The position numbers and the translations under genes were made by a program. Below the pieces are notes generated by a model. It was not told the origin of the DNA. It was given only the letters and a program-made list of their open reading frames with translations, and did not search any database. DNA of 64,000 nucleotides from Candidatus Falkowbacteria bacterium (GTDB taxonomy: Bacteria > Patescibacteriota > Patescibacteriia > CAIXNZ01): assembly GCA_963774955.1 (NCBI GenBank), contig CAVZGV010000006.1:90855-154854 (forward strand), in the 5' to 3' direction. Positions 3,263 to 60,477 of the stretch are shown here, in pieces (the stretch's first letter is position 1; each line of letters begins with the position of its first letter).

Positions 3263-3503
3263 CTTCCGCTTCCTCCTTGCCCTCCGGAACTTTAGTGGAG
3301 GAGGGCTCTTTTGCGCTTGGTAAAAAAACAAATCCCACCACAAAACATCCCATTATTCCTTATTAAATAACATATTTTAATGTTTGTCAATCTGCCCACA
3401 ATCTACCCACTTGACTTTTTTAGCCAAAAGTATACAATATATATATAAAGACCCCGCAGGGTCTTTTTAAAATCGAAAAAACAAACCGATTTTCATTAAC
3501 TAT

Positions 3504-3710
3504 TTGCCTAATAATATGAACAACCCGGTTCAAAAAATCACTGATTACATTAAAGATTCAATAGCAGAACTGAAAAAAGTCACCTGGCCGACAAAAAAAC
3601 AGACAACAGAATATACACTTTTGGTTATTGGTATCAGCCTTGGCCTGTCTATTTTTATTGGTATTGTCGACTATATCCTGACTTTGGGAGTCGAACAAAT
3701 AATTAAATAA
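3504..3710 (+). CDS. secE: preprotein translocase subunit SecE
   Basis: 68 aa with a single C-terminal TM helix, placed immediately upstream of nusG (conserved secE-nusG-rplK-rplA order). Confidence 0.7.
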   Translation: MPNNMNNPVQKITDYIKDSIAELKKVTWPTKKQTTEYTLLVIGISLGLSIFIGIVDYILTLGVEQIIK

Positions 3711-3758
3711 AAATAAATATATGAATTACTAAAAAATTCGCAATAATTAGTTAATCCT

Positions 3759-4301
3759 ATGGCAAAACAAATCTCACGCGGCAAACGCTGGTATGTTATC
3801 CACACTTATTCAGGGTATGAAGAAAACGTAGCTGATAATTTAAAACAAAGAGTTGAATCCATGGACATGGCCGATAAAATTTTTGATGTTATTATTCCTA
3901 CTGAAAAGAAAATTAAAATTAAAAACGGCAAGAGGAAGTCCGTCATAGAAAAAATTTTTCCAGGCTACTTAATGGTTCAAATGATTGTTACCGATGATTC
4001 CTGGTATGTGGTGCGTAATACGCCCAATGTCACTGGCTTCGTGGGCTCAGGCACAACGCCCACCCCTGTTTCCGAAGACGAAGTGAAATCCCTGCTAAAA
4101 AGAATGGGCACCGATGAAGCCAAATTTAAAATTGATGTTTCTGAAGGTTCCCCTGTCAAAATCACTGACGGACCGTTTAAAAACTTCGAAGGTAAAGTTA
4201 CGACAGTTGATGAAGCCCGCGGCAAAATTAAAGTTCTGGTTTCCATGTTTGGTCGTGAAACCCCTGTCGAACTTGACTTTTTGCAGATAAAAAAGATATA
4301 A
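3759..4301 (+). CDS. nusG: transcription termination/antitermination factor NusG
   Basis: NGN domain (RWYVIHTYSGYE) and C-terminal KOW (GSPVKITDGPFKNFEGKV). Sits in the canonical operon position. Confidence 0.9.
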   Translation: MAKQISRGKRWYVIHTYSGYEENVADNLKQRVESMDMADKIFDVIIPTEKKIKIKNGKRKSVIEKIFPGYLMVQMIVTDDSWYVVRNTPNVTGFVGSGTTPTPVSEDEVKSLLKRMGTDEAKFKIDVSEGSPVKITDGPFKNFEGKVTTVDEARGKIKVLVSMFGRETPVELDFLQIKKI

Positions 4302-4421
4302 TCCATTAACGGTAAATTGCTTATTTCCTTATGTCCTAACAAGGAGCTTCTCATCAGGAAATAAAATATAAATAATTTCTAATTTTTGACTTTTGAATTC
4401 TGACTTTTTAGATATAAACAT

Positions 4422-4847
4422 ATGCCAAAACCAATAAAAACTATAATCAAATTACAAATCCCCGCCGGCGCGGCTAATCCAGCACCTCCGGTTGGTCCGG
4501 CTTTGGGTCAGCATGGTTTGAATATTCAGGAGTTTTGCAGCAAATTCAATGATGCGACCAAAGATAAAAGCGGCAGTATTATTCCGGTTGAAATTACTGT
4601 TTTTGATGACAGAACTTATGAAATCAAATATAAAACCCCGCCTGTTGCCGAACTGTTAAAAAAGGCTGCCGGTATTGAAAAAGGATCAGGCAAACCGTTG
4701 CAGGAAAAAGTCGGCAAAGTTACTAAGGCGCAACTCCGTGAAATAGCAGAACAAAAAATGGTTGACTTAAACACTGAAGATGTGGAAGCTGCCATGCGCA
4801 TGATCGCCGGTACTGCCCGCCAGATGGGCCTAACTGTTGAAAACTAA
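4422..4847 (+). CDS. rplK: 50S ribosomal protein L11
   Basis: [22 protein letters not shown] is a highly conserved L11 N-terminus; 141 aa. Confidence 0.95.
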
Positions 4848-4975
4848 CCGAACTTTAGACTTTTAACTTTATACTTTAAACTTATAAAAAGTGTGGGAGC
4901 TTCGGCGCCAAAACCACGCAATACTACTACCCTATTAAATAAAGACGGTGTATTGCGTATACATCGTTTTTTGTA

Positions 4976-5054
4976 TCTACAGATTACAGATAAGTACAGA
5001 TTTACAAATACATCAGCCGAAATCTGTATATCTGTATAGATCTGTAATCTGTAG
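4976..5054. repeat. long imperfect palindrome of 'tacaRat' units in the rplK-rplA spacer
   Basis: Left arm tacagattacagataagtacagatttac; the right arm is its near reverse complement (gaaatctgtatatctgtatagatctgtaatctgta). A related copy lies at 39898..39972. Confidence 0.6.
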
Positions 5055-56310: not shown

Positions 56311-56340
56311 CGGAGCGGCTTCCCGCTACGCGGGAAAATT
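56311..56340. terminator. paired GC tri-loop hairpins
   Basis: aaGCCGCggaGCGGCtTCCCGCtacGCGGGAaaa. Confidence 0.55.
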
Positions 56341-57486
56341 AAAAGTTTGAGAATTTACTAGCGCGGCTTGTAATAAATTATCAAAATCCCAGTTTTTTTC
56401 AGTATCCTTAATTAAATTCAAATCAGCGCGGGTGACCGGATGTTTGGGCACGTAAAGCGAACAGCAGTCGGCAAAAGGCTGGGCTGAAAGTTTAAAAGTT
56501 CGAATCTGTTCCGCAATATTAACTATCTCTTCCTTATTAAAGCCGATTAAAGGCCTTAAAATCGGCAAATCAATAACTTGGGAAATTGCCCGGATATTGG
56601 CCACTGTCTGAGAAGCTACTTGCCCCAAGCTCTCCCCCGTGACCAGAGCTGAAATATTTTCTTTTTGGGCAATCAAGGCGGCAATTCTTAACATCATCCG
56701 GCGGTAAAAAATTACGCGATAATCCTCAGGTACTTTTTTAATTACTTCCTGCTGAATTGGCAAGAAAGGAACCAGATATAATTTTGAACCATTTTGGTAT
56801 TCAGACAAAACTTTAACCAGATCCTTGACCTTTTCCTGATTGGCTTTCGGCGTAGCCGGATAAGCGTCAAAATTCACAAAGACAATTTCGGCTCCCCGCT
56901 TTTGCATCAGATTGGCCGCCACCGGGGAATCAATACCGCCGGAAATCAAACACAGTAATTTATCAGAAACTCCCACTGGCAAACCGCCGCGGCATTTAAT
57001 TTTTTCAAAATATATAAATGCATGACTGGCCACCAAATCAATCCGGCAATTAATATCGGGAGTATGCAGGTCAACTTTCTTTTTTAGTTTAGTCATCACC
57101 AGCTCACCCAATTGTTCGCTGATCTGCTGGGAAGTCAGAGCAAAATTTTTATTGGCTCGTCTGGTCGTTATCCGAAATGACTTAAACTTTTCTTTTTTAA
57201 GCAAAGCTAAAAGATCCTGACCGATCTTTTTAATGTCTGGCTCAGAATTCCAGACCAAAGCAAAATATTCAATGCCAAAAACCTTAAGTAATTGCTCTTT
57301 CACTTTAGCCAAATCCCAACCGTCTCCAATATCAATTATAATCCGGCCCTGAATATGTTTCAGCTTCAGCTGACCAAAATCAGCCAGAGACTTTTGAATA
57401 TTGTGAATCAATTTATTCTCAAAAAACTGCCTGTTACCCCCTTTCAAAGCAATTTCCCCATAATGTATCAATATATACCTATCCAT
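56326..57486 (-). CDS. thiI: tRNA 4-thiouridine synthase ThiI (THUMP + PP-loop)
   Basis: N-terminal ferredoxin-like/THUMP and PP-loop LCLISGGIDSPVAA; 386 aa. Confidence 0.8.
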   Translation of the reverse strand: MDRYILIHYGEIALKGGNRQFFENKLIHNIQKSLADFGQLKLKHIQGRIIIDIGDGWDLAKVKEQLLKVFGIEYFALVWNSEPDIKKIGQDLLALLKKEKFKSFRITTRRANKNFALTSQQISEQLGELVMTKLKKKVDLHTPDINCRIDLVASHAFIYFEKIKCRGGLPVGVSDKLLCLISGGIDSPVAANLMQKRGAEIVFVNFDAYPATPKANQEKVKDLVKVLSEYQNGSKLYLVPFLPIQQEVIKKVPEDYRVIFYRRMMLRIAALIAQKENISALVTGESLGQVASQTVANIRAISQVIDLPILRPLIGFNKEEIVNIAEQIRTFKLSAQPFADCCSLYVPKHPVTRADLNLIKDTEKNWDFDNLLQAALVNSQTFNFPA

Positions 57487-57570
57487 AAAGTTTAAACTAA
57501 AACCTAATATCTAAGATCTAAAATCTATTTATATTTTAACAAATTTTTGAAATTCAGACAAACTTCTATC

Positions 57571-57599
57571 TTGACATATTTATTATTTTAAGCTATACT
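57571..57599 (+). promoter_or_regulatory. consensus-like promoter of the small-protein operon
   Basis: TTGACAtatttattattttaagcTATACT, then an aggaggag RBS. Confidence 0.55.
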
Positions 57600-57639
57600 A
57601 AAATATCGCTCAAATTTGTAATTATAGGAGGAGAAAGCA

Positions 57640-57915
57640 ATGGATTTTTGGGTTGCGCATCCCGGTTTTGGGGGAATCATTTTCCTGGTGTGTATCGCGT
57701 GTTTTCCGCGCCTTACCACGCTCTTCGCCGTGGCCACGCCATTCGGCTGTCTGGCCTGGATCGGCTGGGTCTTTGCCCCGCATCTGCTGGTCGCCATCCT
57801 GGCCACCTACATGTACTGGCACACCAATCCGGTCCTCTGCGTCATCGCCTGGTTCTTCGCCTTAGCCGGCACCGGAGCTGAGGCATCGACAGCATCAAAA
57901 AAATCAGGGGGTTAA
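57640..57915 (+). CDS. small membrane protein (very GC-rich)
   Basis: 91 aa with 2-3 TM helices. Clearly GC-rich in an AT-rich genome; terminator hairpin plus T7 follows (cgagccg...cggctcgttttttt). Confidence 0.5.
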   Translation: MDFWVAHPGFGGIIFLVCIACFPRLTTLFAVATPFGCLAWIGWVFAPHLLVAILATYMYWHTNPVLCVIAWFFALAGTGAEASTASKKSGG

Positions 57916-58051
57916 AAACCCAAAGACACATCGAGCCGCGGCACCTGCCACGGCTCGTTTTTTTACCTAACTATTTTACTTTCGCCAACTCTTGACTTAA
58001 TCACAAAATCGTGTTAATTTATTTGATAAGCATAGCCCAAGGAGGAAGAAA

Positions 58052-58297
58052 ATGGAATATGTTACTTTGGAAATTATCAGCCAAGTAGGCATAAGCGTCT
58101 TTGGCGTTTTGGCCATCATTCTTGTTTCGCGCAAGAATAAGTGGGGTTTTGTTTTCGGCCTGGCTTCACAGCCCTTTTGGTACATAACAGCCTATTTACA
58201 CAGCCAATGGGGCATCATGTTTTTGAATGTTATTTACACAGGCAGCTGGCTTTACGGATTTTACCAGTGGTTCTACAAAAAGGAGGAAAAGCCATGA
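58052..58297 (+). CDS. small membrane protein
   Basis: 81 aa with two TM helices. Own TTGACT promoter at ~58004 and an aaggagg RBS. Confidence 0.5.
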   Translation: MEYVTLEIISQVGISVFGVLAIILVSRKNKWGFVFGLASQPFWYITAYLHSQWGIMFLNVIYTGSWLYGFYQWFYKKEEKP

Positions 58298-58578
58298 GCC
58301 GATCAGACATCAGAAATATATTCGAAGAGCTGGAAAAGACGCACCCAAAGGATGACTTAAAACTCAAGGTTTTTGACTGTTTTCTCGGTCACCCGACAGA
58401 AATCAGACGTATCGGTTTTATGCCGCAATTGATGAACCTTAAACGGCCAGACCATCTGGAAATTTTCATGGCCGCGGTTCAGGAAAAATTCCGTTGGCTA
58501 AAAGAAGAACTGTCCTGGGATAAGATCCCGGCAGCCGAAGCATATTTCACTGAAGCCTGCTCTTTATTGCAGTCGTGA
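58294..58578 (+). CDS. hypothetical small protein
   Basis: aaggaggaaaagccATG; overlaps the upstream stop (ATGA). 94 aa. Confidence 0.45.
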   Translation: MSRSDIRNIFEELEKTHPKDDLKLKVFDCFLGHPTEIRRIGFMPQLMNLKRPDHLEIFMAAVQEKFRWLKEELSWDKIPAAEAYFTEACSLLQS

Positions 58579-58592
58579 TCAAGGAGGCTACC

Positions 58593-58805
58593 ATGTATTG
58601 TCCTTTTTGCCGGAGTAACAAGCACACCATAAAGAACTGTCCCCAAACATGTTCGGGTAATCTTAACAGAAGCAAAATGTCCTGTAAATTCTGCGGCAGC
58701 AGAAACCATAATATAGAAGCCTGTCCGCAAACATTTTCTGGGAACGCAGCGCGGGCGTGGCATCCGGAAACCGTTGCTGATCATTTTGTCAAAGATAAAG
58801 ATTAA
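58593..58805 (+). CDS. small protein with two CCHC zinc knuckles
   Basis: caaggaggctaccATG. CPFCRSNKHTIKNC and CKFCGSRNHNIEAC both fit C-x2-C-x4-H-x4-C, each followed by PQT(C/F)SGN. Confidence 0.5.
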   Translation: MYCPFCRSNKHTIKNCPQTCSGNLNRSKMSCKFCGSRNHNIEACPQTFSGNAARAWHPETVADHFVKDKD

Positions 58806-58824
58806 AAAACAGAGGAGGTAATTC

Positions 58825-59112
58825 ATGTCTGAGCCAAGATTTCAGTGTCGAGCCTGCATGAAGGAACTGACCAAAGAAGAAGCCACCAAGGGCAAGCTTC
58901 AACTGAAAGGTGCCGGTTTTTGGGGACATTGCCCAAAATGCAATCGGAAAGCACTTTTCTTTTCCATCCCGGAGCCTCAAACAGTCGCAGTGCAAAACCA
59001 GGAATTTCAAAGACCACTCCCCTCAAAATGTCCTAAGGGACATGAAGGTAAGATTGAAAGATGGGGCCTGGCTTTCAGGTGCCATACCTGTACCACTATT
59101 TTTTCATCCTGA
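58825..59112 (+). CDS. small zinc-ribbon protein
   Basis: agaggaggtaattcATG. CRAC...CPKC and CPKGH...CHTC. Confidence 0.5.
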   Translation: MSEPRFQCRACMKELTKEEATKGKLQLKGAGFWGHCPKCNRKALFFSIPEPQTVAVQNQEFQRPLPSKCPKGHEGKIERWGLAFRCHTCTTIFSS

Positions 59113-59142
59113 TCTAAAAACTCAAAGAGTCCCGCGTCGCGG

Positions 59143-59163
59143 GACTCTTTTTCTTTTTAAACT
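59143..59163. terminator. GC hairpin terminator
   Basis: aGAGTCCCGCGtCGCGGGACTCttttt. Confidence 0.7.
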
Positions 59164-60477
59164 TTATATTTCCTTTAAAATTTCTCTAGTAGCGATTCTA
59201 TCATCCCATGGGTATTCCTGACCATTAGATTTAATGCTCTGTTCTGTCCCCTTGCCCGTAACTAAAACCAAATCACCGGGCTGGGCCAGCTGACAAGCAT
59301 ATTTAATTGCCTCTCGGCGATCAATAATTTTAAATAAATTCTTATTTTCGACTTTACCTGCGCTAATTGCTCCGCTAGCAATCTCGTTCAAAATTTTTGA
59401 AGTTTGTTCATCATAAGAGTCTTCGTCAGTAACAATACTGATATCTGCCTGTTCTCCTGAGATTCTGCCTAAAAGCGGACGCTTGGCATGATCCCTGACC
59501 CCGCCGGCTGAACCAAAAACATGAATTATACGATTTTGGGGAAACATTTTTATGGTTTTAAAAAGATTATCAAAAGAAACAGGGTCATGAGCATAATCAA
59601 CCAACACGCTAAAGTCCTGACCTTCATCAATAACTTCCATGCGTCCGGGCACACCGGTTACTTTGACTAAAGCCTGTTTACACTGATTTAAATTCAGACC
59701 AAGCTGCAAACCGACACAAATTGCTGCCAGGCAATTATATACATTAAATCTGCCAATTAATTTTGTCTTTATATCTTCAGTGCCTACCCGAAAAAAAGAT
59801 CCATTAACCTGCAAATTTATATCCCCGGCTAAAACCACCCGGGCCTCAGGCAATTTGCTGACAAAACTGATGCCGTACCCGAATTTCTGATCCGCCGAAA
59901 AATTAAAATAATACTGCCAATGCTGATCATCCAAATTAACGACCAAAGCCTTGGGAATTTCTTTACCGTTAATTTTCTTTCTGGGAAATTTGCTTAAACC
60001 AGCAAAAAGCTGCCCCTTGGCTTTTTTATAATTCTCAAATGAGCCATGGGCTTCAATGTGTTCTGGCGTCAAATTAGTAAATACCGCCACATCATAATTT
60101 ATGCCCCAATTACGGTTTTGCATAATGCCTTCTGACGAGGTTTCCACGACGGCATATTTACAACCGGCTTTAACCATCTGTTTCAGCATTTTCTGCAAGG
60201 TTAAACGGCCCTGCATGGTTTTATGAGTATCGTTGATCCATTCTTTATCAGCTATTTTAAAATTAACCGTGGTCATCAAACCGACTTTGGCTCCAGACTC
60301 TTCCAAGACCTTAGCAATCAAATTGCTGGTTGTTGATTTGCCGTTGGTGCCGGTAACCCCGATAACAATCAGCTTTCTTGATGGAAAGCCATAAATGTAA
60401 TTAGCCAAAACCGCCCAACACTTATGGTAAAATAAGAGTAACTTTTGGGGAATTAGTTTTTTGATAAATGATTTCAT
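59164..60477 (-). CDS. murE: Mur ligase family, likely UDP-N-acetylmuramoyl-tripeptide synthetase MurE
   Basis: ATP-binding GVTGTNGKSTT and Mur ligase middle and C-terminal domains; 437 aa. Confidence 0.75.
   Translation of the reverse strand: MKSFIKKLIPQKLLLFYHKCWAVLANYIYGFPSRKLIVIGVTGTNGKSTTSNLIAKVLEESGAKVGLMTTVNFKIADKEWINDTHKTMQGRLTLQKMLKQMVKAGCKYAVVETSSEGIMQNRNWGINYDVAVFTNLTPEHIEAHGSFENYKKAKGQLFAGLSKFPRKKINGKEIPKALVVNLDDQHWQYYFNFSADQKFGYGISFVSKLPEARVVLAGDINLQVNGSFFRVGTEDIKTKLIGRFNVYNCLAAICVGLQLGLNLNQCKQALVKVTGVPGRMEVIDEGQDFSVLVDYAHDPVSFDNLFKTIKMFPQNRIIHVFGSAGGVRDHAKRPLLGRISGEQADISIVTDEDSYDEQTSKILNEIASGAISAGKVENKNLFKIIDRREAIKYACQLAQPGDLVLVTGKGTEQSIKSNGQEYPWDDRIATREILKEI

Follow-up and report, generated by a model that had tools for sequence, protein, structure and literature searches.

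Five small genes beside thiI in a Candidatus Falkowbacteria chromosome: a probable site of gene turnover with a double CCHC zinc-knuckle gene and a putative half-size PnuC

Phage morons and chromosomal accessory-gene hotspots consist of small genes that carry their own promoter and terminator, show an atypical composition, lie between conserved genes and vary in presence. Here we describe a locus sharing these traits, namely five small open reading frames (ORFs), designated O1 to O5, at positions 57571-59163 of a 64,000-nucleotide stretch from Candidatus Falkowbacteria bacterium (GenBank assembly GCA_963774955.1, contig CAVZGV010000006.1, positions 90,855 to 154,854 of the forward strand), which is referred to throughout as the window. 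In contrast to these, no prophage surrounds the block, and O1, O2 and O5 are long-term residents of their site, next to the tRNA 4-thiouridine synthase gene thiI.

Two of the five products can be set directly against described proteins. O4 carries two zinc knuckles of the C-x2-C-x4-H-x4-C (CCHC) type, which have exactly the spacing of the retroviral and eukaryotic ones and stand twice in tandem. However, it differs from these by a CP[KQ]T..G motif, falling in a predicted helix, that follows each knuckle, and by the conserved tail NAARAWHPETVADHF; moreover, it is a stand-alone product of bacteria and phages instead of a part of Gag or of an RNA-processing complex. The uncharacterised Gp64 of phage phiKO2 resembles O4 in its length (66 amino acids), its two CCHC knuckles, its CPKT motif and its 36% identity over 61 residues, but it lacks the NAARAWHPETVADHF tail and is encoded at the extreme right end of a phage genome rather than in a chromosomal operon. 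With respect to O2, full-length PnuC is built of two three-helix repeats, with about 7 transmembrane helices and about 190-240 amino acids. O2 passes the Pfam threshold for this family and aligns to the first repeat, yet it has 81 amino acids, a single repeat and a score below that required of a PnuC equivalog. The repeat logic of SWEET and PnuC has been set out previously (PMC7162841), and O2 would represent one repeat of a two-repeat fold, much as SemiSWEET does in comparison with SWEET (PMC7162841).

The reading that we favour, and which we judge somewhat probable, is that the block represents a variable accessory locus beside thiI, within an ordinary bacterial chromosome of low guanine-plus-cytosine (GC) content, holding phage-shared cargo and not forming one co-evolved system. 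The low GC content, together with the metagenome-assembled genomes in which the closest chromosomal O4 relatives lie, would suggest a small-genome, Patescibacteria-like host. This is based on three variants of the thiI-adjacent site. In the window, thiI is followed by promoter P1, O1 and a terminator, then by promoter P2, O2, O3, O4, O5 and a second terminator, and finally by a Mur ligase gene. The related locus L044 (same as L051) reads thiI, P1, O1' and a terminator, P2, O5' and a terminator, and a dut-like gene, while L047/L048 reads thiI, P2, O2', an unrelated membrane protein of 72 amino acids, O5'', a terminator and ppnp. Thus, the Mur ligase gene on the right is not kept as a neighbour in the relatives, and O5 is the one gene common to the site in all three lineages. 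In DNA alignments the promoter regions are homologous in all three loci, window and L047 diverge directly after O2, and P2 in L044 leads straight into O5'. O3 and O4, in turn, have their relatives elsewhere and in other contexts, and none of the 41 loci bearing an O4 homologue has a homologue of O1, O2, O3 or O5 within about 5 kb. A first-pass annotation of this DNA, made from its letters alone, had proposed one horizontally acquired module and had ranked it as the best candidate in the window for an undescribed system. As the set of five is not conserved, and only subsets of it (O1 with O5 in L044, O2 with O5 in L047/L048) share the same thiI site, the single-module idea fails, and the block is not a discrete new system. 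More generally, a tidy succession of promoters, ribosome-binding sites and terminators, even together with odd motifs, is insufficient to call a system in the absence of conserved co-occurrence. Instead, the site shows, as a clear case from nature, how small genes turn over while the promoter in front of them stays fixed, and what is novel here is the double-knuckle family, as yet uncharacterised, and the class of half-size PnuC proteins rather than the block as a whole.

The divergence of the individual genes is uneven. O1 shares 86% identity with its copy in L044 (310-597), with a ratio of nonsynonymous to synonymous substitution rates (dN/dS) of 0.24, and O2 shares 87% identity with its counterpart at 1337-1573 of L047, with a dN/dS of 0.11. 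The synonymous sites of O5 are saturated (synonymous divergence, pS, of 0.82), whereas the adjoining O1 and thiI show a pS of 0.32-0.34 in the same genome pair; conversely, between window and L047 the pS of O2 (0.41) falls below that of the adjoining thiI (0.67). Such unevenness fits an exchange of alleles or cassettes and not vertical co-evolution, and the low value for O2 could mean that lineages have exchanged this gene recently or that its synonymous sites are constrained. In the picture that we propose, two strongly signalled units would have had their gene content reshuffled between closely related lineages. The first unit would express O1, and the second, with O2 as its first and O5 as its last gene, would be driven by a conserved promoter specific to the locus and end at a terminator that it shares. 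O3 and O4 would be extra genes between these two in this genome, O4 presumably coming from a phage, and the five products would probably act independently of one another.

The knuckles of O4 (C3, C6, H11, C16 and C31, C34, H39, C44) are joined in tandem by a short linker, each being followed by CPQT-x-SGN, and the C-terminal tail NAARAWHPETVADHF is conserved; the two knuckles with trailing PQT-SGN motifs reported by the first-pass annotation were hence found just as described. The family comprises 19 clusters and is found on 26 IMG/VR contigs and, among 185,579 species genomes, in 8 that span several phyla, the hosts including Peribacteria, Buchananbacteria, Gemmatimonadales, Rhodoferax, Hydrogenophaga, Aquabacterium and Nevskia. 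When 20 family members from DNA of 35-69% GC are aligned, little or no variation is found in the second knuckle, the CP.T..G motifs or the NAARAWHPETVADHF tail, and the first knuckle is nearly invariant. The window copy itself has Q in place of the near-invariant K of the family in both CPKT motifs. In the confident AlphaFold 2 model of O4 (predicted local distance difference test, pLDDT, 85.4), both knuckles are followed by a short helix, and the tail contains another one. Compared with solved structures, the family profile best matched Air2 (E 7e-4, borderline) and the nucleocapsid proteins of Moloney murine leukaemia virus, Rous sarcoma virus and human immunodeficiency virus (E 0.009-0.02), followed by the knuckle of Trypanosoma RNase D and by Lin28, which agrees with the earlier assignment of the knuckles to the retroviral and eukaryotic type. 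Matches to Pfam all stayed under the 27-bit cut-off (zf-CCHC_2, 18.0 bits; Lin-28 knuckle, 17.7 bits; AIR2-like ZnK4, 17.4 bits), and a Foldseek search of the model against PDB and BFVD returned no significant match. The public gene calls of the source contig include O1, O2, O3 and O5 but not the exact O4 sequence, and a literature search on phage or bacterial CCHC knuckles and on phiKO2 Gp64 found nothing relevant. Taken together, this stand-alone double CCHC family is small and well conserved, occurs in tailed phages, prophages and a few bacteria, and is largely unannotated, being missed here by gene calling.

Most of the assignable neighbours of O4 relatives are virion head or packaging genes. 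In two phage groups that are unrelated to each other, the relative is flanked by head-tail adaptor Ad1 and head closure Hc1, and in another group it lies between a weakly matched head-morphogenesis protein, which we read as a portal, and a MuF-like head morphogenesis protein. Others follow a portal, virion structural or tape measure protein or lie beside HNH endonucleases, and some have no link to a head module, occurring in a Dam methylase region, next to an amidase-like gene or a T5orf172 protein, or at plain chromosomal sites; an extra Pfam scan of the unassigned neighbours added almost nothing. In phiKO2, Gp64 is encoded by the last gene ahead of the genome terminus that adjoins the terminase genes, and relatives with 36% identity occur in phiKO2-like Klebsiella phages as well as in about 175 linear Klebsiella plasmid-prophages, which offer cultured handles on the family. 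Since most relatives belong to phages and lie in their head, connector and packaging modules, we infer that O4 is a phage-derived gene. This recurrent position is also a hint to function: the family may have a role in head or packaging biology, or may merely be moron cargo of late operons. By analogy with the knuckles of retroviral nucleocapsid and Air2, O4 would bind two zinc ions and contact single-stranded nucleic acid. Going further, the family could act as a nucleic-acid binder of tailed-phage heads and packaging, the equivalent in prokaryotic viruses of the retroviral nucleocapsid knuckle, and the window copy would then be a domesticated phage gene, now expressed in a host operon alongside a half-size PnuC and a lineage-specific zinc-ribbon protein; taken as a whole, we regard this proposal as tentative and unlikely.

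Two minor observations concern O4 loci. In a metagenome-assembled genome of Peribacteria (L008, 3359-4500), the O4 homologue lies between two near-identical cupin genes (3359-3676 and 4171-4500, both on the minus strand), which suggests an insertion or duplication event at this site. Furthermore, an ORF of 115 amino acids (58479-58826, minus strand) overlaps O4 in antisense. Its counterparts in 31 loci that hold an O4 homologue are a by-product of O4 conservation, and the frame is almost certainly no true gene.

O2 is best read, from its match to the PnuC family, as a half-size PnuC. It scores 37.5 bits against the Pfam family NMN_transporter (PF04973; cut-off 27.3 bits, E 3.1e-9) over profile positions 8-70 of 175, but only 24.9 bits against the NCBIfam PnuC equivalog, for which 42.45 bits are required. 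Its alignment covers residues 47-106 of the PnuC structure 4QTN, corresponding to the first three-helix repeat, so that the full architecture of two such repeats is absent from this protein. O2 also matches phrog_2421 (1e-10), a phage family of about 84 amino acids, and similar genes encoding about 75-83 amino acids occur, mostly annotated as hypothetical, in cultured phages of Vibrio, Bacillus, Dickeya, Escherichia and Mycobacterium, where they stand alone. A literature search for half-size PnuC proteins found no paper describing them, and they are known as phrog_2421 and as unannotated phage genes. In analogy to SemiSWEET, O2 might dimerise into a six-helix, PnuC-like facilitator, and a solute resembling nicotinamide riboside or a vitamin could be proposed for it. 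Being under strong purifying selection and found in bacteria as well as in phages, the half-size PnuC proteins could parallel SemiSWEET in its relation to SWEET.

O3 and O5 belong to rare families, of each of which three variants are known. In a word-indexed search O3 retrieved only itself and O5 had no match. A full HMMER search over 1.84 billion representatives detected two relatives of O3, P0046 (E 2e-15) and P0150 (E 4.7e-7), which are 45% and 35% identical to O3 when aligned and share with it the motif RV[FY].C[FY][LI]GHP. The former is encoded on a chromosome (L045) and the latter on a phage-like contig (L049), with different neighbours. As a side observation, a small cysteine-rich, probably zinc-binding gene adjoins the O3-family gene in all three contexts, although its protein family differs each time: in the window it is O4, downstream of O3; in L049 a CxxC...CxxxxC protein of 93 amino acids, likewise downstream (3485-3766); and in L045 a protein of 133 amino acids encoded upstream with a 4-nucleotide overlap (4603-5004).

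O5 has two zinc-ribbon-like sites (C8/C11...C36/C39 and C69/H73...C86/C89), and its homologues are confined to L044/L051 (48% identity) and L047/L048 (39%), in which the cysteine and histidine ligands of both sites are conserved; a metagenome scan for further O5 loci returned just these two variants. The earlier description of the fifth product as a zinc-ribbon protein therefore stands. O5 is a lineage-restricted, fast-diverging, predicted double zinc-ribbon protein and would act as a zinc-stabilised binding protein.

With its several hydrophobic stretches and three long predicted helices (AlphaFold 2 model, pLDDT 84.6), O1 appears as a small membrane protein, and together with the match of O2 to the transmembrane repeat of PnuC this upholds the two membrane peptides initially assigned to the block. 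The HMMER search recovered about 170 clusters of small membrane proteins homologous to O1, with the family motifs FPR[IL]T and APH..VA..AT..YW.TNP.LC..AW. O1 had no match in Pfam or NCBIfam, no structural relative in a fold search and no match in either the phage or the plasmid collection. Relatives are found on three very large IMG/VR contigs (L055, L056 and L057; 177-358 kb), the match lying near 4000-4280, and their neighbours, as read by eye from the translations, are small membrane genes and VWA-domain-like, Ro/TROVE-like and WGR/PARP-like genes. In PADLOC, O1 gave a weak match (E 9e-4, 17 bits), 41 residues long and within a hydrophobic segment, to KwaA of the Kiwa system, from which it differs in that its 91 amino acids face a profile of 173 positions and in that no KwaB is present. 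We consider this a chance or compositional match, as comparison of the family profile with solved structures and the fold search gave no support to it.

As far as their sequences tell, all five ORFs are real genes, because each has protein-level homologues and because dN/dS is low for O1 and O2. That some or all of them are spurious frames in GC-rich DNA, devoid of a coding signature, might be suggested by the absence of O4 from the public gene calls and by the lack of word-indexed matches for O3 and O5, but conservation refutes this, and we find it scarcely credible: every ORF has homologues with conserved motifs, dN/dS amounts to 0.24 and 0.11 for O1 and O2, and the second knuckle and the C-terminal tail of O4 persist in 20 sequences from genomes of 35-69% GC. 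If the genes are real, they could still be the remains of a decayed prophage or integrated element of which a few moron-like genes survived. The phage affinities of O4 and O2, the raised GC at third codon positions (GC3) in O1-O3, tRNA genes at a distance of 2.4 kb and a perfect 12-nucleotide inverted repeat exactly at both borders would be in line with such an origin. However, the 7 kb to the left and to the right of the block contain neither an integrase gene nor structural or replication genes, a search for direct repeats of more than 14 nucleotides at the flanks found none, and a border repeat of this kind is expected by chance in 22% of simulated regions. Moreover, O1, O2 and O5 are resident at this site in related genomes with a divergence like that of the flanks or greater, leaving only O3 and O4 as apparent recent gains, so that we regard the prophage origin as very unlikely. 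Of the phage-derived cassette suggested in the first-pass annotation, what holds is that part of the content is phage-related, relatives of O1-O4 being found on viral or phage-like contigs; as one module it does not.

Could the five genes nevertheless serve a common purpose? Conceivably, they form a compact islet for anti-phage defence or superinfection exclusion, whose constitutively expressed products, the small membrane proteins O1 and O2 and the zinc-binding proteins O3-O5, some of them taken from phages, would stop infection at the membrane or bind nucleic acid that enters the cell. Turnover of the locus between relatives, atypical codon usage in all five genes, the near-consensus P1 with strong terminators closing both units, the occurrence of relatives of O1, O2, O3 and O4 on viral or phage-like contigs and the weak KwaA match of O1 would be compatible with this. 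Yet PADLOC gave no other match among the five, with nothing significant for O2-O5, KwaB as the partner of KwaA is absent, the genes are not co-inherited and no defence genes are in the neighbourhood, which makes such an islet quite improbable in our view; a toxin/immunity system, as was also suggested initially, finds no backing either, since no toxin signature was found and PADLOC gave just the 17-bit match of O1. Alternatively, O2-O5 could constitute one uptake operon, the half-size PnuC importing a vitamin or nucleoside, the zinc proteins serving as regulators or partners, and O3 and O4 being lineage-specific add-ons. In two lineages the operon indeed begins with O2 and ends with O5, a dN/dS of 0.11 indicates strong purifying selection on O2, little space separates the genes (4-nucleotide overlap of O2 and O3, then gaps of 14-19 nucleotides), and ppnp and the dut-like gene next to the relatives belong to nucleoside and nucleotide metabolism. 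Nonetheless, L044 has O5' alone behind the same promoter and without O2, O5 evolves far faster than O2 (39-48% versus 87% identity), PnuC-like genes adjoin O4 relatives in none of the 41 loci and no riboswitch was found in the leader, and we hold the uptake operon to be improbable. The variable accessory locus, which remains our preferred reading, has its own points to answer. The joint occurrence of O2 and O5 at opposite ends of one operon, seen in two of the three lineages, makes a functional link between them conceivable, and the picture of turnover comes from few genomes, with three locus variants known and two of these on contigs of 1.4-2.9 kb. Likewise, the phage-to-host direction assumed for O4 is drawn from the distribution of the family and not from a tree, and the head-module position of its relatives could equally reflect a preferred insertion site of moron genes.

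The composition of the block is less uniform than initially thought. The clearly higher GC ascribed to it applies mainly to O1 (GC 0.58, GC3 0.685, compared to a host GC3 of 0.396 +/- 0.052) and mildly to O2 and O3 (GC3 0.54 and 0.51), but not to O4 and O5, whose GC3 lies within one standard deviation of the host. O2-O5 have 42-47% GC versus 39% for the window, and in the sliding profile the block outside O1 reaches 0.42-0.46 between flanks of 0.38-0.42, with values of up to 0.50-0.52 elsewhere in the window. In host codon preference all five ORFs rank below each of 16 long host genes, a measure that is noisy for genes this short.

Features of the thiI-adjacent block and its flanking genes in the window (positions count from the first letter of the stretch)
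Feature	Position	Strand	Description
thiI	56326-57486	-	tRNA 4-thiouridine synthase; left anchor; Pfam ThiI 2e-69
Promoter P1	57571-57599	+	promoter of monocistronic O1 unit; TTGACA-17-TATACT, 11/12 consensus positions; kept in L044
O1	57640-57915	+	91 amino acids; small membrane protein of a widespread unnamed family
Terminator T1	57932-57964	+	3' of O1; hairpin + T7; -19.7 kcal/mol, z -5.8; kept in L044
Promoter P2	57981-58020	+	TTCGCCAAC upstream motif; -35 TTGACT 57992-57997; TGn + -10 TAATTT 58015-58020
O2	58052-58297	+	81 amino acids; putative single-repeat (three-helix) PnuC-type membrane protein
O3	58294-58578	+	94 amino acids; soluble protein of a very rare family; ATGA 4-nucleotide overlap with O2
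O4	58593-58805	+	70 amino acids; double CCHC zinc-knuckle protein
O5	58825-59112	+	95 amino acids; two zinc-ribbon-like sites
Terminator T2	59124-59159	+	3' of O5; 12-base-pair stem; -22.0 kcal/mol, z -6.5
Mur ligase gene	59164-60477	-	right flank; Pfam Mur_ligase_M + Mur_ligase_C

The remaining anatomy of the locus is summarised in the table. All five ORFs are present with the lengths first given for them, and each is preceded at 5-8 nucleotides by a Shine-Dalgarno sequence of the AGGAGG type, in agreement with the ribosome-binding sites noted at the outset. Both units are closed, as had been proposed, by a strongly folding hairpin with a T run directly 3' of it, and T2 is usable on both strands, being common to the O5 unit and the convergent Mur ligase gene. 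Genes in the flanks (51-64 kb of the window) encode FtsX/FtsE, a lytic transglycosylase domain, PpiC/SurA, DivIC, a VWA protein, a nucleotidyltransferase and tRNAs, with no integrase or phage gene among them. A search of the leaders for riboswitches or other RNA elements returned only tRNAs at gathering score, its lone sub-threshold match being a chance hit to U7. The perfect 12-nucleotide inverted repeat ATAAAGTTTAAA / TTTAAACTTTAT at the block borders (57485-57496 and 59156-59167) falls on the start codon of thiI at one end and on the stop codon of the Mur ligase gene at the other; given its frequency in simulated regions it was rejected as an element end, and only its position is curious.

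Regarding the promoters, which had both been described as consensus, this is true of P1 and of the -35 element of P2, but the -10 element of P2 is weak (3/6 consensus positions) and a consensus promoter scan did not list P2. Even so, the position of P2 and its TTCGCCAAC motif are conserved in two related loci, before O5' in L044 and before O2' in L047. Because TTCGCCAAC..TTGAC has a single occurrence in the 64-kb window (57981-57996), the motif is locus-specific, and the idea of a genome-wide promoter motif was rejected. In L047, TTTCGC[CT]AAC..TTGAC occurs twice, at about 1275-1300 before O2' and at about 2245-2265 before ppnp.

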